DNA from: Candidatus Sulfomarinibacteraceae bacterium
Lineage (GTDB): Bacteria; Acidobacteriota; Thermoanaerobaculia; Thermoanaerobaculales; Sulfomarinibacteraceae
Assembly: GCA_963823345.1 (NCBI GenBank)
Contig: CAWGLE010000013.1
Coordinates: forward strand, 65,438-129,437
Reading direction: 5' to 3'
Length of the DNA stretch: 64,000 bases
In this document: piece by piece, positions 5,418-50,175 of the stretch
How positions within the stretch are numbered: the stretch's first letter is position 1
Layout: each line of letters opens with the position of its first letter
Notes under the pieces: model-generated
The model's input: only the letters and a program-made list of their open reading frames with translations
The model's database searches: none
What the model was told of the DNA's origin: nothing
Program-made: the position numbers and the translations under genes

Positions 5418-5615
5418 GCGTTGCACGTTAAAACGTTAGAACGTGAGAACGTTCCCGCCACCCACCCGGCAGCCGGGACGGCCGCCCCACAAAGGTCCTC
5501 AATCCCGATGATGCATTGTGGTGCGGGCGTCCCGCCCGCACTTCTTCTTGAATACCTATGAGCGTGGGGCGGTTCGGCGGAACGTTCTAACGTGTAACGT
5601 TCCAACGTTTCAACG
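5418..5615. repeat. Composite intergenic element: octamer array, REP pair, inverted octamer array
   Basis: Left ACGTTNNN x4 array at 5418-5455. Reverse REP at 5454-5494 (CCCACCCGGCAGCCGGGACGGCCGCCCCACAA). Forward REP at 5514-5541 (TTGTGGTGCGGGCGTCCCGCCCGCAC). Right array at 5579-5615. The right array is close to the reverse complement of the left one. The element lies between the convergent bfr and cytochrome genes. Confidence 0.9.
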
Positions 5616-5688
5616 ATTCTCCCGCTTTCCGGCCTGTACGAAAAAGCGGGCGCCGCAGCGCCCGCTGTTTCGATTCGGTGCCTGAAGC

Positions 5689-12155: not shown

Positions 12156-12414
12156 GGAAACGTTTGAACGTTGAAACGTTTGAACTTTGCAACGTTGCGT
12201 CCCACCCACTTGGTAGCCGGGACGGCTGCCCCACAGGGGAGGAACCACCGCGACAATTGTGGGGCACGGGTCCCGCGTGCCGGGTGGGTGGTGACTGGTT
12301 CCAACAGCTCTGAGCACTCGAGCGGCTATTCTCGGTGGGGGGTTGGTCGGAAAATCCGAAATCCGAAATCCGAAATCCGAAATCCTAATTCCCAATTCCT
12401 AATTCCTCGTTCCT
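12156..12414. repeat. Composite intergenic element: octamer array, REP pair, heptamer array
   Basis: AACGTTNN-type array at 12156-12197. Reverse REP at 12199-12238. Forward REP at 12254-12293 (TTGTGGGGCACGGGTCCCGCGTGCCGGGTGGGTGG). AAATCCG/AATTCCT heptamers at 12351-12414. Confidence 0.9.
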
Positions 12415-12447: not shown

Positions 12448-14178
12448 ATGGCCAAGGCGCGGACGGTTTTTCTGGGTGCCGGATGCCTGCTGGTATTTCT
12501 CGGCGTGATCATTTTCGCGATGCTCGTGCGGGGGCTTTCGGTCCCGTCGCTGCCCGACGAGATGGTGGTGTCACTGCGGCTCGCAGGCCCGATCGCCGAG
12601 GTCACGGCGGAGGACCCGTTGTCGGAGCTCATGGGCGATCAGCCCACCAGCATGAGCAATCTGCGCAAGGCGCTGACCCGCGCCGCCGAGGATGACCGGG
12701 TGCGCGGACTGCGGCTGCGGATCGACAGCATCGGCGGAGGCTTCGCCACCGCGGCGGAGCTGCGCACGCTGATCGCGAGAGTCGGCGCTGCGGGCAAGTG
12801 GACCGCTGCCTACCTGGACACCGCCGGAGAGTTCGCTCCGGGCAACCTGGTCTATTACGTTGCCTCGGCCTGCGACGAGGTGTCGATGAACCCGCAGGGC
12901 GACCTCAACCTGATCGGCCTCTCGTCGAGGACGCCGTTCATCCGCGGCACCTTCGACAAGCTGGATATCCAGGCCGAGTTCCCCGGTCGCGGCGATTACA
13001 AGACCGCGCGGTTCATGTACACCGAAACCGGGTTCACGCCCGCGCAGCGGGAAATGACGGAGTGGTTGATCGACTCGCTGATGGAGCGGCTGACCGGCGA
13101 CATCGCGAGCAGCCGCGGGTTGTCAGCCGAAGAGGTGCGCAGCCTGATCGACCGCGCGCCGTTTCTCGGTGACGAGGCGGTCGAGGCCGGGTTGATCGAC
13201 CGGCTCGAGAACCTGGGAGAGTTTGACGATCGCCTCGAAGAGCGCGCGCCCGACGCCAGGTCGGTGGGTGTTCGTGCCTATTTGCATCAGGGTCGATTCG
13301 CGCCCAGGGGCTCGAAGATCGCGGTGGTGACCGCGGTCGGATCGATCATGCGCGGTTCCAGCGGCGAGAGCTTCAACCCGCTTTTCGGCGGCCAGGTCAT
13401 GGGGGCGGATACGATCTCGAATGCCTTCAAAGACGTTCGTGAGACCGCCGGTATCGAGGCGGTCGTGTTCCGTATCGATTCGCCCGGCGGCAGCGCCGTG
13501 GCGTCCGAGATCATCCGTCAGGAGATGGTGCGGACCGCGCTCGAAGTGCCCGTGGTCGTGTCGATGGCGAACGTGGCGGGCTCCGGCGGGTACTGGATCA
13601 CCTGCGGCGCGCAGCGGATCGTCGCCGAACCGGTGAGCCTTACCGGCTCCATCGGCGTGTTCGCGGGGCACCTCAACACCTCGGGTTTCTGGTCGGGCAA
13701 GCTGGGTGTGACCTACGGTCGCATCGACGAAGGTGCGAACGCCAACATCTACGGCGATCTCGAGAACTGGACCGACGAACAGCGCGCCATCGTCGATCGC
13801 ATGCTGGATCGGATCTACGACGACTTCGTGGCGCGCGTGGCGGCCTCGCGGGGTATGACTCCGGAGGCGGTGGACGCGATCGGCCGCGGCCGGGTGTTCA
13901 CGGGCGTCCAGGCCGTGGAGAACGGTCTGGTGGACGTCCTGGGCGGTTTCGACGTCGCGTTGGCCGAGGCCAAGAGGCTGGCGGATATCGACGCCGATGC
14001 GGAGGTCGAGCTGGTGCAGTTTCCGCGGCCGGTGCCGTGGTGGCAGGAGCTGACACGGAAGCGCGGATCCGACCAGGTGGCCCTCGAGGCCAAGGTCGAT
14101 TTCCTCCAGAATTGGATCACCAGCGGCACCCTCGACACCCCGGGCGTGGTGTGGATGCCGCCGATACTGATTCAATAG
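12448..14178 (+). CDS. sppA: Signal peptide peptidase SppA (protease IV, S49, two-domain 67K type)
   Basis: 576 aa with an N-terminal TM helix (FLGAGCLLVFLGVIIFAML). Two ClpP/crotonase-like S49 halves are present. The second half contains VVVSMANVAGSGGYWITCGA...SIGV. GGAGGTGG lies upstream of the ATG. Confidence 0.85.
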   Translation: MAKARTVFLGAGCLLVFLGVIIFAMLVRGLSVPSLPDEMVVSLRLAGPIAEVTAEDPLSELMGDQPTSMSNLRKALTRAAEDDRVRGLRLRIDSIGGGFATAAELRTLIARVGAAGKWTAAYLDTAGEFAPGNLVYYVASACDEVSMNPQGDLNLIGLSSRTPFIRGTFDKLDIQAEFPGRGDYKTARFMYTETGFTPAQREMTEWLIDSLMERLTGDIASSRGLSAEEVRSLIDRAPFLGDEAVEAGLIDRLENLGEFDDRLEERAPDARSVGVRAYLHQGRFAPRGSKIAVVTAVGSIMRGSSGESFNPLFGGQVMGADTISNAFKDVRETAGIEAVVFRIDSPGGSAVASEIIRQEMVRTALEVPVVVSMANVAGSGGYWITCGAQRIVAEPVSLTGSIGVFAGHLNTSGFWSGKLGVTYGRIDEGANANIYGDLENWTDEQRAIVDRMLDRIYDDFVARVAASRGMTPEAVDAIGRGRVFTGVQAVENGLVDVLGGFDVALAEAKRLADIDADAEVELVQFPRPVPWWQELTRKRGSDQVALEAKVDFLQNWITSGTLDTPGVVWMPPILIQ

Positions 14179-14400
14179 TTTTGAGTTTTCAGTTTTGAGT
14201 TCTGAGTTCCCGCCCCAATTGCAGCCGGGAGCCGGCTTCGCCTTTGGCTGCGCCGAGACAGGCAGATTGCCTGACAGTTCTTCATGATCGGTCCTTGTGG
14301 TGCGGCCGTCCCGGCCGCACGTGCGGGCGGGACGCCCGCACCACAACGGGTCGAACCGCGTGTGGCGGAGGTGCCCGGCATCCTCTCGGGAAGCGCGCCC
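14177..14400. repeat. Composite intergenic element: AGTTTTG heptamer array, back-to-back REP hairpins, short copy of the 85-bp element
   Basis: AGTTTTG x5 at 14177-14210. TTGTGGTGCGGCCGTCCCGGCCGCAC is immediately followed by GTGCGGGCGGGACGCCCGCACCACAA (14293-14347). 14358-14400 matches the ends of the 39936-40105 repeat unit but lacks its central hairpin. Confidence 0.85.
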
Positions 14401-21890: not shown

Positions 21891-22007
21891 CATCGCAGAG
21901 AGAAACTCCTCCTCCCTCACTACGAAGCTGGAATTATAGCGGTATTTTCCCGACTTCAAGATGTTTCACTTCGTGTTGCATGCTTCGGAGCCCTTCACGT
22001 TCCAGCA

Positions 22008-22160
22008 GTTAGCTTTTAGCTGTTAGCTGGATTCCAATCCCAATACGGCACATCTGAAATGAAGAAACGCCCCTGGATTCCCGGGGGCGTGAGTTGATTA
22101 TTTCGTCCGTCCGAAAGCTAACAGCCAACCGCTGACAGCTAATAGCTAACAGCTAACCGC
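22008..22160. repeat. Inverted heptamer arrays (GTTAGCT / AGCTAAC) flanking a core with a GC hairpin
   Basis: Left array GTTAGCT-TTTAGCT-GTTAGCT at 22008-22030. Right array AGCTAAC-AGCCAAC-CGCTGAC-AGCTAAT-AGCTAAC-AGCTAAC at 22116-22160. Core hairpin ACGCCCC...GGGGCGT at 22067-22090. The element ends 2 nt from the sucD stop. Confidence 0.85.
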
Positions 22161-22162
22161 TC

Positions 22163-23043
<881 letters not shown>

Positions 23044-23047
<4 letters not shown>

Positions 23048-24320: not shown

Positions 24321-24370
24321 GGAATTTCGGATTTCGGATTTCGGATTTCGGATTTTGCCCCACCCGCCCT
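24321..24370. repeat. GGATTTC heptamer array plus C-rich box in a divergent promoter region
   Basis: GGAATTTC-GGATTTC x3-GGATTTT, then GCCCCACCCGCCC. Confidence 0.85.
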
Positions 24371-24415
24371 GGACACGGGCCACAGAAATCGGAAGGAACG
24401 GGCGAGGTGAAGGGC

Positions 24416-27543: not shown

Positions 27544-27548
27544 CGGGT

Positions 27549-28712
27549 TCACCTCATTTCCGGTGGGTCGATGTAGGTGTAGACCTCGCCGGCCCAGTTC
27601 TTCAGCTGCCAGGTGCCGCCTTCCCGTCCCACCACCGTTTCCGGTTGGACCGGGATTTTGCCGCCGCCGCCGGGAGCATCCACCACGTATGTGGGCACCG
27701 CGTAGCCGCTGGTGTGCCCGCGAAGCTGACTCATGATCTCGATGCCTTTGCCGATCGAGGTGCGGAGGTGGGCCGTGCCGACCACCGGGTCGGCCTGGTA
27801 GAGGTAGTAGGGGCGGACCCGCAGCATCAGCAGGCCGTGGAAGAGCTTTTTGAGGACCGCGGGGTCGTCGTTGATGCCGCGCAGGAGGACGGTCTGGCTG
27901 CCGAGCGGGATGCCGGCGTCGGCGAGCAGGTCGCAGGCGGCCGCAACTTCGGGCGTCAGCTCGGCGGGGTGTGAGAAGTGGAGGGACAGCCACACCCTGT
28001 TGCGCCGCAGCACTGCCGCGAGCTCGGGCGTGATCCTCTGCGGCAGGAAGCCGGGCACGCGGCTGCCGATGCGCACGAACTCGATGTGTTCGATCTCGCG
28101 GATCGATGACAACAGGCTGTCGAGGCGATCCTCCGACATCAGCAAGGGGTCGCCGCCCGACAGCAGCACATCCCTCACCTCGGTGTGGGCTCGCAGGTAC
28201 TCCAGGATCGCGTCCATCCGGCGGGGCAGCGGATCGAGAGAGCCCTGGCTGACCAGCCGCGAGCGGGTGCAGTAGCGGCAGTAGGCGGCGCAGGTGTCGA
28301 GGGCGAGCAACAACACGCGGTCCGGGTAGCGGTGGACCAGGCCCTCGACCGTGGACGAGTGGTCCTCGCCGCACGGGTCTTCCATGTCGCCGGCGCTGAC
28401 CACGAACTCCTCCGCGGTGGGGATCACCTGGCGGCGGATGGGGCACTGGGGGTCGAATGGGTTCATCAATGCCGCGAAGTGCGGCGTCACCGACACGGCA
28501 AAACGCTCGGCGCCCATGGCGAGGCCGAGCCTCTCGGTTTCGGTGAGTTCGAGATACGCCTCGAGGTGTTCGAGGCGGGTCAGGCGGTGGCGAAGCTGCC
28601 AACGCCAATCAGCCCAGGTGGCCGGGTCGTAACTCTCACCGAACACCTGACACAGGCGCTGGCGGAGATCGGGCGCAACTTTCCTTGCCGCCGAGCGGCG
28701 GGTTCTAGGCAT
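27549..28712 (-). CDS. kamA: Lysine 2,3-aminomutase family radical-SAM enzyme (KamA/AblA-like)
   Basis: The ATG at 28712 is preceded by AAGGAGGAA. The in-frame upstream ATG at 28838 has no SD. Motifs: HRYPDRVLLL, CAAYCRYCTR (CxxxCxxC), VLLSGGDPL, RVRPYYLYQAD, YVVDAPGGGGK. Confidence 0.9.
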   Translation of the reverse strand: MPRTRRSAARKVAPDLRQRLCQVFGESYDPATWADWRWQLRHRLTRLEHLEAYLELTETERLGLAMGAERFAVSVTPHFAALMNPFDPQCPIRRQVIPTAEEFVVSAGDMEDPCGEDHSSTVEGLVHRYPDRVLLLALDTCAAYCRYCTRSRLVSQGSLDPLPRRMDAILEYLRAHTEVRDVLLSGGDPLLMSEDRLDSLLSSIREIEHIEFVRIGSRVPGFLPQRITPELAAVLRRNRVWLSLHFSHPAELTPEVAAACDLLADAGIPLGSQTVLLRGINDDPAVLKKLFHGLLMLRVRPYYLYQADPVVGTAHLRTSIGKGIEIMSQLRGHTSGYAVPTYVVDAPGGGGKIPVQPETVVGREGGTWQLKNWAGEVYTYIDPPEMR

Positions 28713-29037
28713 CTGAGGTTTCCTCCTTTGGAAAACGGGGTTGGGTTTGGCGATGGGCGAGACTTCACCCTGCTCGCTTGATTGAGCGGGTGCCGATTGC
28801 GTCACACGCGCGGAATGCCCATTGGGGCGCGACGACATGGTCGACCTATCCTTGGGTGTAGGGTTCCCGATGCCACTGACGTGGCTGGGTCATGGGGCAA
28901 CCGAAGGTTGATCCATGGGGGGTGAGAGGCCGGGGGCGCCAACGGCGGGCCGTCAGCCGGAGTCGGCGGCGACTTCCGGAGATCGGCCCGAACCTACTGG
29001 GGGGCTCGTCGGATTTCGTATCAACTCTCACAATTCG

Positions 29038-29065
29038 AAAGTACCGCCAAATGAAACTGTGTCAA
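29038..29065 (-). promoter_or_regulatory. Predicted sigma70-type promoter about 320 nt upstream of kamA
   Basis: On the minus strand: TTGACA (29060-29065), 16 nt, TACTTT (29038-29043). It sits in the only AT-rich patch of this gap, just after the upstream gene stop. Confidence 0.5.
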
Positions 29066-29079
29066 GTTATTTTTGACGC

Positions 29080-30861: not shown

Positions 30862-30907
30862 GAAAACTCCAGTCGCCCTGTCGGAGGGCAACACGGTAGC
30901 ACCATTC

Positions 30908-31069
30908 GAGAATTTCGAATTTCGGATTTCGGAATTCCACCCTCCCTCCCGCATTGGATTCAGGGTCTCTGGACGCCCATTTTCCGAGATCTGCTGTTCC
31001 TCGATCGTGTTGACCCGCACGAGAGATGGGCCGAAAAATCCGAAATCCGAAATCCGAAATCCGAAATAT
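30908..31069. repeat. Inverted heptamer arrays (GAATTTC/GGATTTC and GAAATCC) flanking a roughly 90-bp core
   Basis: Left array at 30908-30938, followed by the C-rich box ACCCTCCCTCCCGC. Right array AAATCCG x4 at 31031-31069. The right array is the reverse complement of the left unit. Confidence 0.9.
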
Positions 31070-31093
31070 AAAAGCCCGGGCCGAGGCCCGGGC
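31066..31093 (-). terminator. Rho-independent terminator after the M16 peptidase pair
   Basis: The minus strand reads GCCCGGGCC-TC-GGCCCGGGC followed by TTTTATATTT, 28 nt after the TAA at 31121. Confidence 0.75.
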
Positions 31094-31120
31094 GATCGAA
31101 GTTGCAGGTTGATGTGATGG

Positions 31121-32599
31121 TTACTTGTCGATCGGCTCCAGGGTCATCGGGTCGCGCAGCGGAAGCTCCGTGATCTTCCCGAAGTCCGAGAGCCTGGCCT
31201 CGTGCTCGGGGTGGCCCTTGGTGATCTCCTCGATATTGCCGACGACCAGGACGACCATCGTGTCCGGGTCGAGGCCGGCTGCCATCGCCTTCTGGATGTC
31301 GTCGCCGGTAACAGCCGCCACCTTGTCGCGGTAGTCGGTCCAGTAGGAATGGGGCCGTCCGAGGAGCTCGTCCGTGGCGAACAGTCCAACCACCTGGCCC
31401 GCACTCGCGAACCGGCGCGGGAAGGTCTCGATGAAGGAGGCCTTGGCCGTGCGCAACTCCTCGTCGGTGGGCGGGGCGGTTCGCATGCTCTTCAGGAGCC
31501 CGAAGAAGATCTCTGCGGCAAAGGCGCAGGTCGAAGACTTGGACTGGTAGTAGGCCCGGAACGTCCCCGGCATGGTGACGGGAAAGCTGAGGCTCGAGTA
31601 GGCGCTGTAGGCGAGACCCTCGTCGGATCGGATCGTCTTCATCATGCGGGCGGTGAATCCGCCGCCACCGAGGATGTCGTTGCCGATCATCAGGGGGAAC
31701 TCGTTCGGCGTTCCCTGCTGGTAGCCGATTTTTCCGATACTCACCCGACCCTGGTTGACGTCGGGTTTGTTGACGACGTAGACGCCCTTCGCGGTCGGCG
31801 CGGTCGGTTGCGGGATCGAGGGCAGGGTGCCCTCGAGCTTCGGAAGGGTGGCGATGGTGCGGTTGAGCAGAGCCTCCATGTCGGCCTGTTGGAAATCGCC
31901 CGCCACCGCGACCACGAGATTGCCCGAACGCACCAGCGAACTGACGAAGGCCTTGCAGTCGGCGGCGGTGATTTCGTTCACCGAGGCCTGGGTCGCCAGA
32001 CGGTTCATCCAGTAGCCGTCGCCGTAGATCAGCCGGTCCCACTCCCGGCTTTCGATATCGGCGGTGTCGTCGTTGCGCTGCTTCATCGCCTGCAGCATGT
32101 TCTCCTTGGTCTTGGCGAAGCGGTCCTCCTGGAAGCGTGGCTTCGTGAGGACGTCCATCAAGATGGCCATGGCCGCGTCGAGATCTTTGGACAGGACGTT
32201 CAGGTTCACCGAACCGGTGACGTCGCCGACGCTGGTGTTGAGATTCGCAGCGAGGTAGTCGAGCTCCTCGTCCAGCTCTTGAGCGGTTCTCTCGCCGGCT
32301 CCCCCTGAGCGCCACGCGTCACCGGTGATGGCGGCCAGACCGGCTTTGCCGTCGGGCTCGAGATAGCGGCCGCCACGGAAGGAGACGGTGATGTTGACCA
32401 GTGGAAACTGGCTGTCCTGTTTGGCGTAGACCGGCGTGCCGTCGGCCAGCTCGAAACGCAGGGAATCGGCGTCCGGCACCTCGAAGGTGAGGTCCGGGTA
32501 GACCAGTTTCTCGGGCCGATCCGGGATATCCGCGGCGGAGACTGTCGCCGCGGCAACCATCAGAGCCAACGTAGCAACGGAAATCATCAAGCGGCGCAT
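31121..32599 (-). CDS. M16-family peptidase, non-catalytic (beta-type) subunit, secreted
   Basis: 492 aa with the signal peptide MRRLMISVATLALMVAAATVSA. It has the M16 fold pattern but I saw no HxxEH motif. It starts 1 nt after the upstream M16 stop. Confidence 0.8.
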   Translation of the reverse strand: MRRLMISVATLALMVAAATVSAADIPDRPEKLVYPDLTFEVPDADSLRFELADGTPVYAKQDSQFPLVNITVSFRGGRYLEPDGKAGLAAITGDAWRSGGAGERTAQELDEELDYLAANLNTSVGDVTGSVNLNVLSKDLDAAMAILMDVLTKPRFQEDRFAKTKENMLQAMKQRNDDTADIESREWDRLIYGDGYWMNRLATQASVNEITAADCKAFVSSLVRSGNLVVAVAGDFQQADMEALLNRTIATLPKLEGTLPSIPQPTAPTAKGVYVVNKPDVNQGRVSIGKIGYQQGTPNEFPLMIGNDILGGGGFTARMMKTIRSDEGLAYSAYSSLSFPVTMPGTFRAYYQSKSSTCAFAAEIFFGLLKSMRTAPPTDEELRTAKASFIETFPRRFASAGQVVGLFATDELLGRPHSYWTDYRDKVAAVTGDDIQKAMAAGLDPDTMVVLVVGNIEEITKGHPEHEARLSDFGKITELPLRDPMTLEPIDK

Positions 32600-32600
32600 G

Positions 32601-34371
32601 TCACTCCCCCTCTCCGGCCGACGCCTTGAGCTCTTCGAGCCGTTCGGTGGCCTTTTTGATCACCAGTTCGATGGCGGGTTTGTATTCGGGCGGCGCCTGG
32701 GCGGCCATCGCCTGCATCTGCGCCAACCCCTGTTGAAGCTCGGCGGGATCGGTCACCTGGTTGATCTGCGCGAGGGCCTGTTTGGCCATCGCCTTGCCCT
32801 GGGCCGACAGTGCGGCCAGCTCGGGGTCCTCTTCGCTGCCCTCCTTGCGGAAGTACCAGAGGGCGTTCAAGCCGCTCTCGGTGAAGTAGGTATTGGCGAC
32901 CCGCTGGACATCCTCGGCCGTCACGGCCTGAATCCGGGCCGCAGACTCGTTGAGGAAGCTCCAGTCCTCCCACACGTCGTAGAGGAGGAGCTGCAGCAGC
33001 AGGAAGAAGTCGGACTGGAGACGGCGGTAGGAACCGGCCAGGGCCTGGTTCTTGACCTTCTGCAGCTCGCGCTCGCCGACCGGTTCTTCCTTCAGGCGTG
33101 CGATCTCGAAGATCAGCGCGTCCTCCACCAGTTGGTGATCCACCCCGTCCGCGAGCTCGGCGCCGACCTCGACGAAGCCGCCGTACTTCAACGCGTCGTG
33201 GTTCGAGTAGGGCTCGCCGGTGGCGATCTTCTTCTCCTCGACGAGGCTCTTGTAGAGCCTTCCGGTGCGGTCGTTGAGGATCGAGTCCATGACCTCGAGG
33301 GCGTAGAAGTCCTTGCTCCCGAAGGGTACGGTGTGCCAGCGAAGGTGGACCGACGGGTTGGTGTCGGCCTCGGCGATCATGCGCCGTTCGGCGAGCTGCT
33401 CGATCTCCTCGGTGACCACCGGCGGCGGCTGCCTTGGCCCCGCGCGGAATGCGGCCCAGGTATTTCTGAGCCAGAGCCAGCGCCTGTGCGGGGTCGAAAT
33501 CGCCGACCAGCGCAGTCGTGATGTTGTTGGGCGCGTAGTAGGTGGCGAAGAACTCCTCCGCTTGAGCGCGCGTGATCGACTCGACATCGGAGGGCCAACC
33601 GACCACCGGGTGGTGGTAGGGGATGGAGCCCCAGAACATCATGTCGAACTGCTCCTGGAACTTCGCGGTCGGGTCGGATTCGGTCCGCACGCGGCGCTCT
33701 TCACGGACCACGTCGCGCTCGGTGTAGAACTCTCTGAAGACCGCGTTGAGGAGCCGCTCGGACTCCATCCAGAACCACAGCTCGAGCTTGTTGGCCGGCA
33801 CTGTGATGAAGTAGATCGTGAAGTCGTTGCTGGTGCCCGCGTTCATCCCCGAGGCGCCGGCCTCGGTGTAGATCTGGTCGAACTCGTCCTTGACGATGAA
33901 CTGCTTCTGCTGGGCCTCGAGCTCCTGCATCTTCTCGCGAAGTGCCGCCAGCTTCTCGGTCTGATTCTCGGGCAGGTAGATGCTGCCCTCGATCTTGCCG
34001 GCTCGTTTCATCTCCCGCATGACCTCGTACTCGGCCTCCATCTCGAGCCGGAGCTCGTCGAGCTGGGCCATGATCGCGGCCTCTTTCTCGAAGTCGGAGG
34101 TGCCGATGGTCGGGCTGCCCTTGAACATCATGTGTTCGAAGAGATGGGCGATGCCGGTGGCGCCGGCCTCCTCGTTGACCGACCCGACATGGGTCACCCA
34201 ACCGGCCGAGACCGTCGGGCTTTCGTGGCGTTCGACCATCAGTATTTTCATGCCGTTGTCCAGAAAGACCTCCTGGACGGGGACCTTGGCCTCCTGGGCT
34301 GCGACGGCAAAGGTGCTCAAGAGCACCACCGTCAGCAGCCCGGCGACCGTCAGATGACGCCGAAGACTCAT
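32601..34371 (-). CDS. M16-family zinc peptidase (HxxEH), secreted, apparent +1 frameshift near 33438-33441
   Basis: The ATG at 34371 has GGAAGGAG upstream. Signal peptide: MSLRRHLTVAGLLTVVLLSTFAVAA. Catalytic motif: GIAHLFEHMMFKG. After ...AQKYLGRIPRG the frame must shift into the 32601..33587 ORF (PRQPPPVVTEEIEQLAERRM...). An extra G lies in a GGGG run. Length is 1771 nt = 3n+1. Confidence 0.9.
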
Positions 34372-34596
34372 CGTTTCGCTCCTTCCGTGTTGGTGTTGCG
34401 GTTGTCGCACTTCCGGTGAAGTTGTTCCCCGGACCGTATTCTGTAACGATTCACGGACTCTCCCGAGATCTGCTCGCGGTGCGCAGATGATACTACGGCG
34501 CGAGGCGGTTTGGGTTCGGATCGGGTCCCGTGAGCGGCCTCCCGGCAACTGGACAGCACCCCGGAGGGGCTGTACCGTGGCGCTGTCGGAGGCAGA

Positions 34597-35379
34597 ATGA
34601 ACAACCTGCTGTTGGCCCTCGATGTGGGCAACACCAACACCGTAGTCGGTCTGTTCGAAGGCGACCGGTTGCGCACCCACTGGCGTCTGACAACCCACGC
34701 GGAACGTACGGCGGACGAGGTTGGCATGTGGCTGCTGCAGCTTCTGCGGTGGGAGAAGGTGGACCCGGCCGACCTCGCGGCGGTGGCGATCTCCTCGGTC
34801 GTGCCGCCGATCGATCCGCGGCTCGACGAGGGAGTGCGCCGGTTCCTCGACGTGGTCCCTTTCTTTGTCGAACCGGGCGTCAAGACCGGGATGCCGCTGC
34901 TCGTGGACGCACCGCATGAGCTCGGGGCGGATCGGCTCTGCGATGCCGTGGCCGCCTATGCCGAACACGGTGGGCCGTGCCTGGTGCTCGACTTCGGGAC
35001 CGCCGTCACCTGGGAAGTGGTGTCTGCACGTGGCGAGTACCTGGGAGGCGCCATCGCCCCGGGGCCCGGCGTCACCGCCGACGCTTTGGCGTTGAAGACC
35101 GCCAAGCTGCCCAGGGTGGCCATGGCGCCGCCCGATCGGGTGATCGGGAAGGGCACGGTGGACAGTATCCAGATCGGCCTCTTCTACGGCTATCTCGGTT
35201 TGATCGAGGGCGTGACGCGGAGGATCCTCGAGGAACTGGGCGAAGCGACGGTCATCGCGACGGGTGGCTTGGCGGGGGCTTTTGCGGCGCACACCGAACT
35301 GATCCACCACGTGGAACCCGACCTCACTCTGCACGGACTGAGGATGCTCTGGCAGCTCAACCGCGGAGAGGTCGCGTGA
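34597..35379 (+). CDS. coaX: Type III pantothenate kinase
   Basis: 260 aa: MNNLLLALDVGNTNTVVGLF..., GADRL, LDFGTA, GGLA. Confidence 0.9.
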   Translation: MNNLLLALDVGNTNTVVGLFEGDRLRTHWRLTTHAERTADEVGMWLLQLLRWEKVDPADLAAVAISSVVPPIDPRLDEGVRRFLDVVPFFVEPGVKTGMPLLVDAPHELGADRLCDAVAAYAEHGGPCLVLDFGTAVTWEVVSARGEYLGGAIAPGPGVTADALALKTAKLPRVAMAPPDRVIGKGTVDSIQIGLFYGYLGLIEGVTRRILEELGEATVIATGGLAGAFAAHTELIHHVEPDLTLHGLRMLWQLNRGEVA

Positions 35380-35444
35380 GCCCCAGGGGACGCGAAGCCC
35401 GCAGGGAGGCGCGGCAGCGAATCCGCCGGCGGGTCGAGGAGAAG

Positions 35445-36074
35445 ATGCGGCCGATCACGCTGCCGAACTTCATCACCCTGACCCGGATGGCGATGGTGCC
35501 CGTGTTCGTGATCGCGGTTTCGGACCGGGACTTCCGCCTCGCGTTGTGGATATTCATCGTTGCAGGTCTCACGGATGCTTTCGACGGCTTCCTGGCGCGG
35601 CGTATGGACATGAAGAGCCGTTTCGGCGCCTACCTCGATCCCATCGCCGACAAGATGCTGATCACCGTCGCCTACATCGCCCTGACCTTTCCGCAGGGCC
35701 AGGCGGTGGTGATTCCGCTGTGGCTGACCATCCTGGCTCTCTTTCGCGATTTCGTGATCATGGTGGTGGCCGGAGTGTTGTACATGGTCGAAGGTCTCAG
35801 GGAGTTCCCGCCGTCGCCCTTGGGCAAGGCCACCACCTTCGCCCAGGTCGTGACCGTGGCGGTGGTCCTGCTGGCCAACGTGTTCGAGGTGTCTCCGTGG
35901 ATCCCGACGGTGTGCTTCTACCTGTCCTTCGTTCTCGTGATCGGGTCGGCCTTCAACTACATCTACCGCGTCAGCCGGTTCGTCGAAGAAGCCCGGCAGG
36001 CACGGGAGAGCGAAGGAGGAAGTGGATGGGAGTGCGAATTCGGATTCGGAATTGAATGTGGAATTAGGAATTAG
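35445..36074 (+). CDS. pgsA: CDP-alcohol phosphatidyltransferase (PgsA-like)
   Basis: The CDP-alcohol motif is DAFDGFLARRMDMKSRFGAYLDPIADK, and there are multiple TM helices. The ATG at 35445 gives the usual short N-terminus (MRPITLPNFITLTRM). An alternative GTG at 35376 overlaps the coaX stop. The last about 13 codons (ECEFGFGIECGIRN) are encoded by the heptamer array. Confidence 0.85.
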   Translation: MRPITLPNFITLTRMAMVPVFVIAVSDRDFRLALWIFIVAGLTDAFDGFLARRMDMKSRFGAYLDPIADKMLITVAYIALTFPQGQAVVIPLWLTILALFRDFVIMVVAGVLYMVEGLREFPPSPLGKATTFAQVVTVAVVLLANVFEVSPWIPTVCFYLSFVLVIGSAFNYIYRVSRFVEEARQARESEGGSGWECEFGFGIECGIRN

Positions 36075-36160
36075 GAATGCCACCCCACCGCCAGGAACCC
36101 GAAAATGGGCCGGTTGGGATGGCCGAAATTCCTCAATTCCTAATTCCTCATTCCTAATTT
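36036..36160. repeat. Inverted heptamer arrays (GGAATTA / TAATTCC type) flanking a short C-rich core
   Basis: Left array GAATTCG-GATTCGG-AATTGAA-TGTGGAATTAGGAATTAGGAATG at 36036-36079. Core: CCACCCCACCGCC.... Right array GAAATTCCTCAATTCCTAATTCCTCATTCCTAATTT at 36125-36160. Confidence 0.9.
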
Positions 36161-36173
36161 GGGACGTGGCCGG

Positions 36174-37430
36174 CTAGGTCACCGTTTCCGGCGGGTTGAA
36201 GGTCGGCATGATGTTGTTGAGGACCCGGATCACGTCGCGGGCGATGGTCTTCTCCTCATTGGTGGGGACCACCAGCACCCTGACCCGGGAGTCGTCGGTC
36301 GTGATCTCTCCTTCGCCGTCGGTGAGGGCGGCGTTGCGGTCCCGGTGGAGCACGATACCCATGAACTCGAGACCGACGAGGGCCGCCTCCCGGACCTCGG
36401 GCGACTTCTGCCCGATGCCTCCCGTGAACAGCACCGCATCCACACCGCCCATGGCCGCCGCATAGGCGGCGAGGTACTTCTTGATCCGGTAGCAGAACAT
36501 GCGGAACGCGACGTCGGCGCGCTGGTTACCGTCGGCGCGGGCGGCCAACAACTCACGCATATCGGAGGAAACGCCCGACACGCCGTACAGCCCAGAATGC
36601 TTGTTGAGCATGGTGTTGACCTGGTGGAGCGTCATCTCTTCCATCGCCATCAACCAGGGAACGATCGCAGGGTCCATGTCGCCGGAACGGGTTCCCATGA
36701 CGAGCCCCTCGAGCGGAGTGAACCCCATCGATGTGTCGATGCTCTTTCCGTGATCGACCGCCGCCAACGAGCACCCGTTCCCGAGGTGGACGCTGATCAG
36801 CTTCTTGTTTTGGCGTTCCCAGCCGAGGATCTGACTGCCCCTGAACGTCACGTAGCGGTGGGACGTGCCGTGGAACCCGTACTTGCGGAGATGGTGCTTC
36901 TTGTAGAGCTGGAACGGGATTCCGTACAGGAAGGCGTGAGCCGGCATGGTCTGGTGAAAGGCGGTATCGAACACCGCCAGGTGCGGAATGCCGGGCATCG
37001 CGGCGTAGGCCGCGTAGTAGCCGCGAAGGTTGGGTGGGTTGTGGAGGGGGGCCAGCACGGAACACGACTCGATCTGTTCCACGACCTCCGGCGTGATCAG
37101 CACGGACGACGCAAAGGCCTCGCCGCCGTGCACCACCCGGTGGCCGACCGCGCCGATTTCCTCGACCGAGCCGAGGATGCCGTGCTCGGGGTCCGTCAGG
37201 ATGCGCAGAACCCACTCGATGGCCGTCCGGTGCTCGAGAATCTCCCGGTAATCCTGGTACTTCTTGCGGTCGGGAACCTCGAGGACCAAGCGCGAGTCGG
37301 AGAGACCGATCTTTTCGACCAGCCCCACCGCCAGGGTCTGGTCCTGGTGGGCGTTCATGCGTTCGAGATCTGTCTCGATAATCTGGAACTTGACCGATGA
37401 CGATCCGCTGTTGAGGACGAGAATTTTCAT
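36174..37430 (-). CDS. ackA: Acetate kinase
   Basis: 418 aa: MKILVLNSGSSSVKFQ..., HRVVHGG, GFHGTSH, FTGGIG. Confidence 0.95.
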   Translation of the reverse strand: MKILVLNSGSSSVKFQIIETDLERMNAHQDQTLAVGLVEKIGLSDSRLVLEVPDRKKYQDYREILEHRTAIEWVLRILTDPEHGILGSVEEIGAVGHRVVHGGEAFASSVLITPEVVEQIESCSVLAPLHNPPNLRGYYAAYAAMPGIPHLAVFDTAFHQTMPAHAFLYGIPFQLYKKHHLRKYGFHGTSHRYVTFRGSQILGWERQNKKLISVHLGNGCSLAAVDHGKSIDTSMGFTPLEGLVMGTRSGDMDPAIVPWLMAMEEMTLHQVNTMLNKHSGLYGVSGVSSDMRELLAARADGNQRADVAFRMFCYRIKKYLAAYAAAMGGVDAVLFTGGIGQKSPEVREAALVGLEFMGIVLHRDRNAALTDGEGEITTDDSRVRVLVVPTNEEKTIARDVIRVLNNIMPTFNPPETVT

Positions 37431-37454
37431 ATGGAACTCCGGAAACCGCTGCGG

Positions 37455-38363
37455 TCACGCCATGCGCGGTTTGTCATCGGGCAACCGGTCGGTACGGTGC
37501 CGGTTCTCGTCATAGGTGAAGAAGCCGCGCCCCGTCTTGGCGCCGAACAGCCCGGCGCGGACCAGCCTCTTGAGCAGCGGGCAGGGCCTGAACCTGGGCT
37601 CGCCGCTTTCGGCGTACATGTGCTGCAACCAGTTGAGGACCCGGTCGAGACCGGTACGGTCAGCCCACTCGAGGGGGCCGCTGCGGAAGCCGTAACCGAG
37701 CTTGAGCGCGAGGTCGACCTCGGCCGCCTCGGCGACGCCTTCCATCACGACGTGAATGGCCTCGTTGATCAGCGGCAGGATGATCCTGGTGGTGACGAAG
37801 CCGGGCATCTCGAAGACCTTGATCGGGACCTTGCCGAGAAGGCGCGCGAAATCGATCGCCTGCTGATAGACCTCGTCGGTCGTCAGCTGGCCCCGCACCA
37901 CCTCGACCACCTGGGTGGTCGTCACGGGGTAGAGAAAATGCATACCCACGATGCGCTGCGGCTGGGTGTTCTGGGCCGCGAGCTCGGTGATCGAAAGGGT
38001 GGAGGTGTTGATGACGATCGGGTGGTCGGGCGCCATGCGTTTGTCGAGCTCCCGCAGGATCTGCCGCTTGAGGCCGAAATCCTCCTGAACGGCCTCGATC
38101 GCGAGCTCGCAGTCGGTGGCGCAGTCGAAATGAGTCACCCAGGTAATGCGGGAGAGGATGGCCTTTTTCTCGGAGTTCGTGAGGCCGAACCGGGCGATCT
38201 CGTGATCGAGGGCTTCCTCGAGCTCGCTCCGGGCCGCGTCGACGGCTTCGGCCGAGACCTCCTTGAGGTAGACGTTGATGCCCTCCTGGGCGACCTTGGT
38301 GGCGAGGGACCTTCCCATCATCCCTCCGCCGACGATCACGACGCGGTGCAGTTCCTTGCTCAT
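37455..38363 (-). CDS. hbd: 3-hydroxyacyl/3-hydroxybutyryl-CoA dehydrogenase
   Basis: The ATG at 38363 gives MSKELHRVVIVGGGMMG, a Rossmann GxGxxG. Other motifs: NTSTLSIT, GMHFLYPV, GFVTTRI, C-terminal GFFTY. Confidence 0.85.
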   Translation of the reverse strand: MSKELHRVVIVGGGMMGRSLATKVAQEGINVYLKEVSAEAVDAARSELEEALDHEIARFGLTNSEKKAILSRITWVTHFDCATDCELAIEAVQEDFGLKRQILRELDKRMAPDHPIVINTSTLSITELAAQNTQPQRIVGMHFLYPVTTTQVVEVVRGQLTTDEVYQQAIDFARLLGKVPIKVFEMPGFVTTRIILPLINEAIHVVMEGVAEAAEVDLALKLGYGFRSGPLEWADRTGLDRVLNWLQHMYAESGEPRFRPCPLLKRLVRAGLFGAKTGRGFFTYDENRHRTDRLPDDKPRMA

Positions 38364-38472
38364 CGGCAGAGTGTAGCAAAAGATCGGCGAACCGGCACCC
38401 ATTTGTACAAAATTTCACAAAACCGTGACGCGGGCCGGATCGCCCCCGATTCCGGTGGTGTATGATGAGTCC

Positions 38473-39006
38473 ATGAGACGAGTTCTCGCAGTTACGGCAG
38501 TTCTCATCGCGGCCGCTTTCGGCGGTGGAGGCGCGTCCGGCGCCGAAACGTCCGAAATCCCGCGATTCCCGAATCTGACCTTCCTGTCGGTCGACGGCTC
38601 GACGCGGATCGACCTCGAATCCCTGCGCGGCCGCCCGGTGCTGTTGACGTTCTGGGCGAGCTGGTGCGGGCCGTGCCGGATGGAGCTTCCCGAGCTTCAG
38701 AAACTGGCGGTCGAGCTCGAGGACGAGGGCCTGGCGCTGGTCACGGTGAACATGGATCGATCGCCGGCGATGGGCATGAAATTCCTCGAGCGCTACAACA
38801 TCGATGTCCCGGTGTTCCTGATGAGCAGCCGCGATCTCCAGACGCTCGGTGTCGGCGCCCTGCCCACCAACGTCCTGCTCGACCGCGATGGCCGCCCCGC
38901 CCAGATTTTCGAAGGGTACTCGCCGGAAGTGCCGATGGAGATCCGTCGGCTGGTGCTCGGTATGAAGGGCGGCCCACCGGCCACGGACTCGTCGACCGTC
39001 AGATGA
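38473..39006 (+). CDS. Secreted TlpA/ResA-like thioredoxin-fold thiol:disulfide oxidoreductase
   Basis: The ATG at 38473 gives the signal peptide MRRVLAVTAVLIAAAFGGGGASG. The redox motif is TFWASWCGPC. Confidence 0.85.
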   Translation: MRRVLAVTAVLIAAAFGGGGASGAETSEIPRFPNLTFLSVDGSTRIDLESLRGRPVLLTFWASWCGPCRMELPELQKLAVELEDEGLALVTVNMDRSPAMGMKFLERYNIDVPVFLMSSRDLQTLGVGALPTNVLLDRDGRPAQIFEGYSPEVPMEIRRLVLGMKGGPPATDSSTVR

Positions 39007-39836
39007 GGTCGCCCGTACGAAACCCGGTCATCCTGGCCGTGACAGCCGCGATCTTGAGCGTCGGCTGGAGCGAGACGACGATCCGGCACGTGGCGTGGAC
39101 GGCGGTCGACTTCGTCCCACCGGACCTCGCCCGCCAGATCCATCGTCACGACGATCGATTCAACGCGGGAATACGTCGCGGCGTCGCGGCGCCGCCGGCG
39201 TGGCGGGCCGGGCCTCCGGGCAACCTGCCGCAGGCGCTCGAGGCCCAGATCCAGCGGTGCGCGGACGACTTGCGGAGACCGGTGGCTCTCGACGACCTGG
39301 TGGAGGAGCTGGGCGTGCTGGCGGTGTTGGTGCTCGATGCCAACGACCCGCTCGCCGTGTCCCACGATGACGCCCGCGAAGCGGCGTACGCGGAGAGCTA
39401 CCAGCGATACGTCGATTCCGTGCTGGGTCGAATCAAGCTCGTCTTTTACGGACAGGACCACGACCTCATCCATGGCGGGGCGGTAACGGCTGCGGTCGAC
39501 GCGGCCGTCGCCCGCAGCGCCTCCCTCTACCCCTTCGTGGGTCAGGAGTTCTACCGCACCGGCGAGCTGCGGGGGTGGCAGGGTCTCGACGACCGGGCGG
39601 TGACCTTCGGTGTCGCCGGCGTCACGCTGTCACGCGCTCTCACCGATTTCGCGAACATCACTTCCTACATCTGGCGCCAGGGGGGCGGTCAGGTGCCGAC
39701 GCCGCGACCGACACCGTTAGGCCACACGGGTCCGACCATCACCCGCACTCTCGACGGCGGGTTCCCGGAACGCGACCAGCCGGCGCGCGGCAAACCCGCG
39801 ATGCCGAACCCCGGGCTGCGGTTGCCGCCACCCTGA
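39003..39836 (+). CDS. Secreted hypothetical protein (weak resemblance to zinc phospholipase C / P1-nuclease N-terminus)
   Basis: The ATG at 39003 overlaps the upstream stop as ATGA; 277 aa. A signal-like N-terminus is followed by GWSETTIRHVAWTAV and later VLVLDANDPLAVSHDD, reminiscent of W...H...A and D..PLH metal-ligand motifs. This is a by-eye observation only. Confidence 0.45.
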   Translation: MRSPVRNPVILAVTAAILSVGWSETTIRHVAWTAVDFVPPDLARQIHRHDDRFNAGIRRGVAAPPAWRAGPPGNLPQALEAQIQRCADDLRRPVALDDLVEELGVLAVLVLDANDPLAVSHDDAREAAYAESYQRYVDSVLGRIKLVFYGQDHDLIHGGAVTAAVDAAVARSASLYPFVGQEFYRTGELRGWQGLDDRAVTFGVAGVTLSRALTDFANITSYIWRQGGGQVPTPRPTPLGHTGPTITRTLDGGFPERDQPARGKPAMPNPGLRLPPP

Positions 39837-39837
39837 C

Positions 39838-39897
39838 GGGATTTCGGATTTCGAATTTCGGATTTCGGATTTCGGATTTCCCGCCCACCCCCCCCAC
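39838..39897. repeat. GGATTTC heptamer array plus C-rich box
   Basis: GGGATTTC-GGATTTC-GAATTTC-GGATTTC x3, then CCGCCCACCCCCCCCAC. It starts 2 nt after the preceding stop. Confidence 0.9.
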
Positions 39898-39935
39898 AGA
39901 CGATAAGCACTCGAGTGCTCTGGGTGGGTGGGACG

Positions 39936-40105
39936 GCGTGCGGCGGAGGTGCCTGGCTCCCGGCCCGTCCGACGGGCCGGCGTGCCTGGCATCCTCCCGG
40001 GAAGCGCGTGCGGAACGTCAGCGTGCGGCGGAGGTGCCTGGCTCCCGGCCCGTCCGACGGGCCGGCGTGCCTGGCATCCTCCCGGGAAGCGCGTGCGGAA
40101 CGTCA
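39936..40105. repeat. Perfect tandem duplication, 2 x 85 bp
   Basis: 39936-40020 and 40021-40105 are identical by eye. The unit is GCGTGCGGCGGAGGTGCCTGGCTCCCGGCCCGTCCGACGGGCCGGCGTGCCTGGCATCCTCCCGGGAAGCGCGTGCGGAACGTCA. Each unit contains the hairpin CGGCCCG-TCCGA-CGGGCCG. The last 3 nt of copy 2 are the stop codon of the 40103..41413 gene. Confidence 0.95.
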
Positions 40106-41413
40106 GATTTCCGCGGCCCAGCTCTTGCCCTGTTTGCGAACGCCGCCCTCGAGGGTCTTGAGGAAACGCGACCGCAGCTGGTCCGACAAGAGGGCCTTCT
40201 TGACCGGTGGGAGTTTGAGAAAGCCGCCGACCAGGCCGCGGAGAAAGGCCTGGCTTCCGCTCGCGGGGTTGTCGAAGAGCTGGTGCTGCAGGGTCCCGCG
40301 ATCCAGGGCCGACAGGATCACGCGCTGGAACGTGCTTTCCGGTGGGATCACCCGTTGCGCGCGCTTCTCGAGCTTCATGGCGCCGGTCGTGCAGGCGTTG
40401 GCGCAGACGCCGCACCCGAGACAGAATTCCAGGTCGACGGCGGGCTTCTTTTTCTTTCGTGTCCCGGGGTTGTCGTCCGCGACCATCGTGATGGCGTCGA
40501 TCGGACACGCCTTCTCGCAGTGGTTGCACCCTTTGCAGATTTCGTCGTCGGTGGAGGCGATGAAGCTCGAGGTGACGACGACGGAGGTGTAGCCGTGATC
40601 GGTGAGGCCGGCCAGGGCGTTGCAGCAGCACCCGCAGCAGTGGCAGATGAAGGTGACGTTGCGCTGCACGTTGTCGGCATTGAGGACCAGACCGAGTTCG
40701 CGGGACCGTTCGACGTTGTCCAGCATCTCGGACTTCGAGACCTCGCGGGCGAGATCGTGCCGGATCAGGTAGTCGGCCGAGTACCCCATTGACGAGCAGT
40801 TGTCCATCGGGGCGTCGCAGGCATGGCCGAGGTGGTGCTTCTCGTGCCGGCACGAGCACAGACCCATCGAAAACCGTTCGTGCCGGTCGATGATCTCCTT
40901 CGCCTTCTCGTAATCGAGGATCTCGACGTGCTCTTCGTCGCGGATGGTGCCCTCGTACGGCAGGGCGCGCATGATGGTGGTGGTCTCGCCGTGCCCGAAG
41001 TTCGCGTCGAAATACACACCGTCGGGGCCCATGTACTGGTGGAAGAGCCCGGCGATCTTCGTGCGGTCGAGATCGGGGCCGGTGCGCATCATCGTCAGCT
41101 CGAAGATGCCGATCACCAGCGGCGACACGGTATAGCGGTACGAGCCGTGGATCTCGATGTCCATCACCAGGCCCTTGTCGCAGAGACGGTCGAGGCGGTG
41201 TCGGAGAGCGGTCGGGTCCTCGCCGGTCACGGCAGCGAGCCGGCGCAGAGTGGACAGGCCGTTGGGCATGCGGGTGATCAGGTCGGCCTCTTCCGGTGTG
41301 TAGAGCTCCCGCAGGATCTCACCGAGGGTTTCGTTCCACGGCGTGCGGGTGGCCAGGCTGTCGATCTTGCGGCCCAGCTCGCGATAGACGTCTTTGCCGA
41401 CGAGGTGTCCCAT
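40103..41413 (-). CDS. Multi-cluster 4Fe-4S ferredoxin-domain protein, function unknown
   Basis: 436 aa with Cys clusters CSCRHEKHHLGHAC, CHCCGCCC, CKGCNHCEKACP and CLGCGVCANAC. Confidence 0.75.
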   Translation of the reverse strand: MGHLVGKDVYRELGRKIDSLATRTPWNETLGEILRELYTPEEADLITRMPNGLSTLRRLAAVTGEDPTALRHRLDRLCDKGLVMDIEIHGSYRYTVSPLVIGIFELTMMRTGPDLDRTKIAGLFHQYMGPDGVYFDANFGHGETTTIMRALPYEGTIRDEEHVEILDYEKAKEIIDRHERFSMGLCSCRHEKHHLGHACDAPMDNCSSMGYSADYLIRHDLAREVSKSEMLDNVERSRELGLVLNADNVQRNVTFICHCCGCCCNALAGLTDHGYTSVVVTSSFIASTDDEICKGCNHCEKACPIDAITMVADDNPGTRKKKKPAVDLEFCLGCGVCANACTTGAMKLEKRAQRVIPPESTFQRVILSALDRGTLQHQLFDNPASGSQAFLRGLVGGFLKLPPVKKALLSDQLRSRFLKTLEGGVRKQGKSWAAEI

Positions 41414-41554: not shown

Positions 41555-41584
41555 TCGAAATCGCGAACTCCGAAATCCGAACGG
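41555..41584. repeat. Short degenerate AAATCCG-type heptamer array
   Basis: TCGAAATCGCGAACTCCGAAATCCGAACGG, between the Fe-S protein start and the mutM stop. Confidence 0.6.
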
Positions 41585-42456: not shown

Positions 42457-42491
42457 CATTCCTAATTCCTAATTCCGAATTCCTAATTCCG
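42457..42491. repeat. TTCCTAA heptamer array
   Basis: CATTCCTAATTCCTAATTCCGAATTCCTAATTCCG. The xth stop codon (42483-42485) lies inside the array. Confidence 0.85.
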
Positions 42492-48853: not shown

Positions 48854-48891
48854 CGAAACTTTCACACGTTCAACGTTCTAACGTTCAACGG
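48854..48891. repeat. ACGTT-type 7-8 bp array
   Basis: CGAAACTTTCACACGTTCAACGTTCTAACGTTCAACGG, between the two VWFA paralogues. Confidence 0.8.
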
Positions 48892-50022: not shown

Positions 50023-50175
50023 GAGGTGCAGCCGGGACGGCCGCACCACACGTCGCTCGGCTTCGGTCTCGCGGTGAAGGGTTTGTAGGAAAGCCGTCCC
50101 GGTCGCCGGGTTCCAGCCTCGCCCGTAAACGGCGAACGTTTCAACGTTCCGACGTTCTCACGTTGAAACGTTGAG
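50023..50175. repeat. Composite element: REP unit(s) plus ACGTTNNN octamer array
   Basis: GAGGTGCAGCCGGGACGGCCGCACCACACG at 50023-50052. A degenerate unit, AGCCGTCCCGGTCGCCGGG, lies at about 50090. The array GAACGTTTCAACGTTCCGACGTTCTCACGTTGAAACGTTGAG is at 50131-50175. Confidence 0.85.

Follow-up and report, generated by a model that had tools for sequence, protein, structure and literature searches.

Intergenic heptamer arrays at gene ends in Thermoanaerobaculia: units change while facing arms stay complementary

An excess of heptamer repeats in bacterial intergenic DNA has, to our knowledge, been noted since 1990, for the short tandemly repeated repetitive (STRR) sequences, and since 2007 in genome surveys, and we know of no accepted function or origin for it. 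Repetitive extragenic palindromic (REP) sequences and bacterial interspersed mosaic elements (BIMEs) are abundant extragenic hairpin repeats, found inside operons and at the 3' ends of genes, for which a role in RNA 3'-end protection has been proposed. In Xanthomonas campestris and X. axonopodis, arrays of about four GGGAATC units are 89-93% intergenic, lie on average 28 nt from the upstream open reading frame (ORF) as against 160 nt from the downstream one, are rare between divergent genes and form 70-75 inverted 'convergent' pairs per genome, with positions conserved between species and lengths that vary (Rehm et al. 2015; PMC4692102). Here we analyse a stretch of 64,000 nt (the window; GC content about 66%) from a Candidatus Sulfomarinibacteraceae bacterium (Acidobacteriota, Thermoanaerobaculia; contig CAWGLE010000013.1), and in particular a locus at 36.1 kb, where two heptamer arrays face each other in the 99-nt gap between the convergent genes pgsA and ackA. 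The locus is one of a family of intergenic microsatellites, of heptamer or at times octamer units, that extends genome-wide in Thermoanaerobaculia, and among related species its repeat unit changes while its two arms remain complementary.

The family resembles the Xanthomonas repeats in several ways: a high-GC genome carries intergenic heptamers of about four units that form inverted pairs, lie near the upstream ORF and are depleted in divergent gaps, and the unit GGGAATC itself resembles the GGAATTC and GGATTTC of the window. An earlier reading of the window from its letters alone (the sequence-only reading) had supposed this design to be undescribed, which was too strong a claim, since inverted heptamer-array pairs are already on record for GGGAATC (PMC4692102). 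The differences are nevertheless considerable. Xanthomonas uses one unit genome-wide, with a G3 tract from which a G-quadruplex (G4) can form, whereas the arrays surveyed here have dozens of variants and a G3 tract only in the adjacent G-rich box (G-box); the density extrapolated from our survey, about 1500 arrays per 5 Mb against 186, is some eight-fold higher; the window arrays are accompanied by a polar C-rich box (C-box), for which Xanthomonas was not checked; and unit turnover with matched arms across species is unreported for Xanthomonas, which belongs to another phylum. The STRR sequences of heterocystous cyanobacteria are likewise intergenic tandem heptamers with several unit types per genome, but belong to the cyanobacterial phylum, lie in Nostoc mostly near starts or promoters, and have few inverted pairs and no described C-box; the window units presumably differ from those of STRR1-3. 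With REP sequences and BIMEs the family shares extragenic, hairpin-forming repeats at gene 3' ends, yet a REP is of conserved sequence, a fixed imperfect palindrome of about 20-40 nt, and has an associated RAYT transposase, while the arms described here are variable-unit microsatellites without a conserved palindrome. The TAACTGA repeats of Beggiatoaceae, also abundant intergenic heptamers (2-6 copies) in a fixed gene-relative orientation, differ in being a single unit, placed immediately upstream of start codons and direct only, with one inverted case in 170 sets (PMC4679880). Literature searches on the unit strings and on Thermoanaerobaculia repeats, among the papers available, found nothing relevant. 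What is new relative to the known heptamers is the phylum, the density, the many units whose arms match, the documented replacement of units at orthologous sites and the polar C-box.

The 36.1 kb locus is built as follows (where no strand is given, none is assigned):
35376..36074, plus strand: pgsA, for a CDP-alcohol phosphatidyltransferase whose C-terminal tail is array-derived; convergent with ackA
36036..36078: left arm, with degenerate outer units GAATTCG GATTCG GAATTGAATGT, then GGAATTA GGAATTA GGAATG
36080..36092: C-rich box CCACCCCACCGCC, the inner flank of the left arm
36093..36106: apical region AGGAACCCGAAAAT, whose CCC pairs with the GGG at 36107-36109 to give a small CCC/GGG top stem
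36107..36124: G-rich box GGGCCGGTTGGGATGGCC, pairing imperfectly with the C-box
36125..36160: right arm GAAATTCC TCAATTCC TAATTCC TCATTCC TAATTT, the reverse complement of the left arm
36174..37430, minus strand: ackA (acetate kinase), the query for orthologous loci

The left arm covers the last 13 codons of pgsA (...WECEFGFGIECGIRN, followed by the stop TAG at 36072-36074), and the right arm terminates 13 nt short of the ackA stop codon. An RNA hairpin is predicted on both strands (z = -5.0), as is a fold of the single-stranded DNA under DNA parameters (z = -5.6). A scan for intrinsic terminators, covering 21001-41000 of the window, predicted no canonical terminator at 36.0-36.2 kb, and an Rfam scan of the whole window returned no match at gathering thresholds.

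The acetate kinase of the window is 96% identical to that encoded by ackA of long-read metagenome-assembled genomes (MAGs) labelled Candidatus Sulfomarinibacteraceae (Acidobacteriota, Thermoanaerobaculia). With ackA as query we fetched 39 orthologous Thermoanaerobaculia loci (L numbers below) from a genome collection; together with the window they make up a survey of 638 kb. In about 24 of the 39 loci the ackA-pgsA gap holds an inverted array pair, and at least ten unit types occur there:
ATTTCGG: L001, L002, L004, L036, L038
AATTCGG: L003
AATTAGG: the window, with L006 similar
AATTCTC: L005, L015, L019
AGTTTTG: L021, L033
CAGGGTC: L007
ACGGCTTT: L012
GGAGTGA and GACGTTA types: L013, L016, L032, L034
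GATAGC, or a 12-mer: L014
GGATATT: L018
an 8-9-mer: L020
a single self-complementary ACGTTGA array replacing the pair: L009

The complementarity of a left arm to the right arm of its own gap averages 30.8, as against 15.5 with the right arms of other species, and in 0 of 20000 permutations was the observed sum reached. Where orthologous gaps were tested for folding, a gap-spanning hairpin was predicted in 11/11 (z from -2.3 to -6.1). Among species whose ackA is 80-96% identical the hairpin is kept although its sequence has turned over completely; in more distant relatives (ackA identity of 80% or less, for instance L025-L027, L029 and L035) arrays are absent from this gap. The clade offers an unusually clean natural experiment, in which the unit of one gap has been replaced at least ten times across some 24 species with the arms still complementary. 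This suggests that what persists is single-strand pairing, in RNA or in replicating DNA, and the proposal of the sequence-only reading that pairing rather than sequence is preserved holds up well. Behind the stop codons of xth, fpg, orf39 and the M16 peptidase gene, too, orthologous sites keep arrays, with units or copy numbers changed; in L001 the xth gap is filled by unique sequence, equal in length, where its relatives carry an array. Many MAGs assembled independently, from long reads or from short reads, carry the same arrays at orthologous sites; the arrays are not an artefact of assembly. In L038, a duplication of about 60 nt in the ackA-pgsA gap (11400-11500; core plus first right-arm units, ...ACAGCGTCCATCCACGGTTTGCTCTGGGGTCGGTGCGATGGAAAATTCGAAA present twice) shows larger-scale slippage in the same region.

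In all, the window holds 19 AT-rich arrays of period 7 or 8, where the mean expected by chance is 0.07 from 30 dinucleotide shuffles in 1-kb blocks and 1.2 from a separate shuffle of intergenic DNA only. Tandem Repeats Finder (TRF) and direct reading recovered arrays wherever the sequence-only reading had placed them: ACGTTNNN arrays at 5425, 5581, 12157, 48857 and 50135; GGATTTC/AAATCCG arrays at 12352, 24324, 30910, 31036, 39839 and 41556; GGAATTA/AATTCCT arrays at 36060 (degenerate units from 36036), 36127 and 42458; AGTTTTG at 14177; GTTAGCT/AGCTAAC arrays at 22004 and 22116; and GATGMAG at 58735. Its four inverted pairs, at 5.4, 22.0, 31.0 and 36.1 kb, are likewise real, with arm alignment scores of 34-42 and predicted RNA hairpins also at 22.0 kb (z = -6.7), 31.0 kb (z = -6.2) and 5.4 kb (z = -5.6); they account for 8/19 of the window arrays. 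When partners were counted in array flanks at an alignment score of at least 30, 50 of 157 arrays in the 638-kb survey had an inverted partner and 8 a direct partner in the same flanks, and among neighbouring array pairs 24 were inverted and 4 direct. Relatives carry the arrays, inverted pairing is preferred and separate assemblies concur, on each count the opposite of what the sequence-only reading had named as grounds for giving up its proposal.

We tentatively suggest that the arrays are a heptamer satellite of gene ends which evolves fast and forms hairpins, and that the pairing of its arms serves, in read-through RNA, as a barrier or insulator at the 3' end. Each array, of about four to five AT-rich units, adjoins a gene end, in most cases immediately past the stop codon or overlapping it, and has its C-box facing the interior of the gap. 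A gap with an array on both sides, the two being reverse complements, would fold, in single-stranded nucleic acid, into an A/U-rich repeat stem of 25-35 bp topped by the GC-rich boxes. Replication slippage would turn arrays over rapidly in copy number and unit, and arm complementarity would be maintained by selection or by fold-back template switching. The 36.1 kb hairpin would be present in read-out transcripts of both pgsA and ackA, and may serve as a sequence-independent 3'-end structure that blocks 3' exonucleases as well as read-through into the convergent gene, like REP/BIME hairpins. We infer that such hairpins form in vivo, act at the level of RNA and affect transcripts; extrusion of DNA cruciforms, which had also been proposed, is unlikely with spacers of 49-260 nt, judging from established biophysics.

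A number of observations weigh against a gene-end hairpin satellite. About two thirds of the arrays have no inverted partner, and the solitary GGATTTC arrays have no significant fold (z of 0.1 and -1.3). Selection on stem length predicts a correlation between arm lengths, and none was found (rho -0.30). The hairpins have no 3' U tract, and their T-rich arm lies 5' and their A-rich arm 3', which is the opposite of a bidirectional intrinsic terminator. Sense-strand G-U against A-C transitions in tandem gaps number 5 to 1, and these six informative changes, non-independent in that they come mostly from one orthologous locus, are too few to tell action in RNA from action in DNA. The gap after the M16 peptidase gene belongs here as well. 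A canonical terminator at 31093-31074 of the window (minus strand; GCCCGGGC-(T/C)TCG-GCCCGGGC, then a T tract) is conserved at the orthologous site in about 18 loci, down to some 60% protein identity, and the arrays start right after its T tract, with complementary arms in four species; since they lie behind a terminator and upstream of the next gene, they may be little transcribed. In L003 and L005 the same gap holds two non-complementary arrays, AGTTTTG against ATTCCTA or AATTCCG.

Two further features of the M16 gap may be recorded. In L013, L019, L021 and L023, GC-rich hexamer arrays, (CCGTGC)n or (CAGCGG)n, occupy the array position after the T tract. In the window, the string TGGTGCTACCGT (minus strand, 30890-30906) lies between the right-hand array and the start of a histone-deacetylase-family gene; it is TGnTAnnnT-like and conserved, similar GCGYTACACT strings adjoin arrays in L001-L003 and L012, and it may be an extended -10 promoter element, in which case some arrays lie just upstream of promoters.

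Their place in convergent gaps and right after stop codons, together with strong hairpins, would suit ordinary bidirectional intrinsic (Rho-independent) terminators. We regard this as very improbable: the terminator scan, silent at 36.0-36.2 kb, found canonical terminators with a GC stem and T tract elsewhere, sometimes in the same gap as arrays, the array stems are far longer and more AT-rich, and the order of their T-rich and A-rich arms is the wrong one. The reading of arrays as canonical terminators was rejected; the canonical site at 31093-31074 lies beside the arrays and not within them.

Among the 34 gaps of at least 30 nt in the window, 12 carry arrays, so that the earlier 'almost every intergenic gap' was an overstatement; the 12 comprise 4/6 convergent, 8/19 tandem and 0/9 divergent gaps, the last with a hypergeometric probability of about 0.01, though gene calls are ambiguous around the array at 24324, which may be a single divergent instance. 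Outside the ackA gap, 13 of 51 arrays in tandem gaps and 12 of 23 in convergent gaps have a stop codon at a distance of -10 to +16 nt. Also outside that gap, 33 arrays lie within 40 nt of a gene, 25 of them abutting a 3' end and 8 a 5' end, and in every case (33/33) the array is on the gene side with the box toward the gap interior. When arrays are turned to their G-rich orientation, C accounts for 42% and G for 23% of the 15 nt that follow, as against 29% and 33% of the 15 nt that precede; strong C-boxes follow in 41 cases, compared with 4 G-boxes downstream and 10 boxes of each kind upstream, so the association with a C-rich box is statistically real. Near arrays, motifs of the form GGGN(1-3)GGGN(1-3)GGG occur 20 times where 2.5 are expected, an eight-fold enrichment. 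We also considered a conserved GC hairpin core as the constant element, an idea dropped because C-box:G-box pairing downstream of solitary arrays (13.0) does not exceed that of controls (12.7).

This strict polarity, with 41 boxes against 4, 10 and 10 and a gene-side array in every one of the 33 cases, may instead be the mark of a mutational by-product without selected function. A polymerase would stall at the G-rich or structured C-box template and slip, leaving tandem duplications of about 7 nt 5' of the C-box, and the nascent strand would fold back and copy the other arm (quasi-palindrome template switching); arrays would grow until they reach coding sequence, AT-rich units being favoured by easier melting and misalignment. 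We rate such a process as only a little less likely than the satellite acting in read-through RNA. It fits the enrichment of GGG motifs, the uncorrelated arm lengths, the many solitary arrays and occasional non-complementary pairs, and the complementary arms found even behind a canonical terminator, and a polymerase footprint has been cited as an explanation for heptamer excess (PMC4692102). It also fits the way in which arrays invade stop codons and append junk C-terminal tails: as had been pointed out from the sequence, the pgsA tail and the xth stop codon lie inside arrays. Arrays visibly affect annotation, where they give rise to false N-terminal extensions as well as to C-terminal tails that they encode.

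Growth from the box outward predicts a gradient of unit homogeneity toward the C-box, and there is none (0.903 against 0.907). Nor would a by-product readily explain the depletion of arrays in divergent gaps, or a hairpin kept across 80-96% ackA identity while its sequence turned over. Polarity itself is not universal. Arrays of (GGATTTC)4 or longer occur in at least 120 metagenome contigs of 31-67% GC (examined set L081-L160), with an inverted partner upstream in 28 of 78 cases and downstream in 6 of 74, a polarity opposite to that of the Thermoanaerobaculia clade, and with no C-box enrichment. We therefore rejected a universal polarity of (GGATTTC)n pairs; the feature common across taxa is inverted pairing. 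Interrupted forms such as GGATTTC-CTTC-GGATTTC-GGGGCTTC recur in these contigs.

Unit identity raises a further difficulty for local slippage. Period 7 dominates the survey (112-124 arrays, mean 4.6 copies), the mean GC of heptamer units is 0.42 in a genome of 0.66, and 111 of 124 heptamer arrays are intergenic though about 76% of the surveyed sequence was called coding; 6-, 9- and 12-mer arrays are GC-rich and mostly coding. Array density in the clade is 29 per 100 kb, compared with 4.8 in other phyla under the same sampling; a density of about 30 per 100 kb would put the share of the genome taken up by the repeats at roughly 1%. The 124 arrays represent 48 canonical heptamers, and 104 of the arrays (104/124) fall in one cloud linked by single substitutions. 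The sequence-only reading was right that units match within pairs, but the arbitrary choice of unit at each locus that it had supposed does not agree with this cloud. The commonest unit, CGGATTT, forms 29 arrays in 10 genomes and stands, as a CGGATTT-type unit, at six loci of the window; CGGAATT forms 15 arrays. Since one unit recurs at many unrelated loci, local slippage alone is not the whole story. Units include CGGATTT, CGGAATT, GAGTTTT and CCTAATT, none of them containing GGG, and with at most two consecutive G the arrays themselves cannot form a three-tetrad G4. The notion that units whose length is not a multiple of three supply a stop codon in every frame was rejected, as the commonest unit, GGATTTC, is stop-free in both orientations.

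A single cloud of units with a loose GRNWTTN pattern, in arrays of a narrow size (about four to five units) and fixed orientation relative to gene ends, could also reflect binding by a protein of loose specificity and 7-nt footprint, either a single-strand binder of the cold-shock-domain type, one per heptamer, or a double-strand roadblock. The functional unit at gene ends would then be the array and not the hairpin, which suits the majority of arrays that are solitary, and CspB binds heptamer repeats with one protein per unit (PMC4679880). We think this improbable. One orthologous site carries units as different as CAGGGTC, ACGGCTTT, GGATATT and GATAGC, arm complementarity is left unexplained, the polarity is reversed in other taxa, and no candidate protein was identified.

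The scatter of the same unit families over many loci and genomes, and of (GGATTTC)n through metagenomes, might alternatively suggest miniature mobile elements, resembling miniature inverted-repeat transposable elements or REP/REPIN, with the arrays as terminal inverted repeats and repeated colonisation by different families. REP-like doublets with GC-rich stems (...GCCCCACAA ... TTGTGGGGC...) lie in the window at 2987/3015, 5485/5516, 12229/12257, 14295/14339, 21813/21840 and 63932/63959; four of the six (4/6) REP-bearing gaps also hold heptamer arrays, one doublet lies within the loop of the 5.4 kb pair, and the window REP recurs within the ackA gap of L013 and L023. The doublets (...CCCCACAA/TTGTGGGG...) are elements separate from the heptamer arrays. 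In L001, arrays at 5478, 7573 and 11538 each have the same 30 nt behind them, GCTCGCGGCCTGAGGCCGCGGCGTCTACCC, which make up a second dispersed repeat of the hairpin kind joined to arrays. Such company and the shared 30-nt flank would suit mobile elements, which we nonetheless consider unlikely here. The arms are inverted, but the cores between them share only low-complexity boxes; comparisons of orthologues, such as the L001 xth gap, gave no target-site duplications or clean empty sites, although no systematic search was made; and no transposase is linked to the arrays in the 64 kb and flanks, no genome-wide gene search having been made. Units change, moreover, in situ and one substitution at a time, from GGATTTC through GGAATTC to GGAATTA, as seen inside single arrays (12352-12407; 36036-36078) and between orthologues.

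Two broader possibilities may be set out for the paired arrays, both of which we hold to be doubtful. They may be a sequence-free, structure-selected bidirectional gene-end element, in which arms built of fast-slipping heptamers are kept complementary; each genome would then employ, about a thousand times over, a 3'-end insulator that is tunable or evolvable. Or they may be the trace of a dedicated enzymatic process that writes heptamer arrays beside a polar C-rich site. Either, if true, would also account for the heptamer arrays of Xanthomonas and cyanobacteria. The clade also provides contrasts open to test: paired against solitary arrays, presence against absence of the polar C-box, and the opposite polarity of other taxa.

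The other arrays of the window, none with an assigned strand, are:
5419..5619 (arms 5419-5455 and 5579-5619): ACGTTNNN inverted pair with C-box, REP doublet and G-box between the arms
12157..12407: composite gap, in the order G-box, AACGTTTG array (12157-12196), C-box, REP doublet, G-box, final array
14177..14208: solitary AGTTTTG array with C-box, beginning within the stop codon of an S49 peptidase gene
22004..22161 (arms 22004-22029 and 22116-22161): inverted pair GTTAGCT/AGCTAAC, adjoining the sucD stop codon, with a terminator-like GC hairpin inside
24324..24355: solitary ATTTCGG array flanked by G-box and C-box, with no significant predicted fold
30910..31067 (arms 30910-30937 and 31036-31067): inverted pair GGATTTC/GAAATCC, starting on the minus strand directly after the terminator T tract
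39839..39880: solitary GGATTTC array of six units, 3 nt past a stop codon, followed by C-box CCGCCCACCCCCCCC and G-box GGGTGGGTGGG
41556..41581: degenerate GGATTTC-type array, 13 nt past the fpg stop codon (minus strand)
42458..42490: in the 67 nt between xth and fpg, a GGAATTA/GGAATTC array holding the stop codon of xth (minus strand)
48857..48890: weakly self-folding AACGTTC array, its core AACGTT a palindrome
50135..50172: AACGTTTC array with a weak self-fold, 10 nt from a stop codon
58735..58765: upstream of a DUF1684 gene, a GATGMAG array

The 5.4 kb gap is convergent, between a ferritin-like gene and a cytochrome c gene. Arrays of the AACGTT type, with their palindromic core, fold weakly on themselves, and in the final array of the composite gap (12352-12407) AAATCCG units run into AATTCCT units. 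Directly after the 39839 array and its boxes lies a perfect 85-bp tandem duplication (39936-40106; 2.0 copies, 100% identity) that carries a GGCCCGTCCGACGGGCC hairpin as well as the motif GCGTGCGGCGGAGGTGCCTGGC. A recurrent motif of intergenic DNA, GCGGCGGAG(G)TGCC, stands at 14362, 39940 and 40025 (plus strand) and at 41472 (minus strand), the last about 60 nt upstream of the start of a Fer4 protein; it is kept at the same place, downstream of fpg/orf39, in L001, L002, L036 and L038, and may be a promoter or leader element. Two longer tandem repeats, at 63777-63898 and 47373-47470, are respectively 2.3 copies of a 52-bp unit with the palindrome GGTGGGCC...GGCCCACC and 2.5 copies of a 40-bp unit (98% identity).

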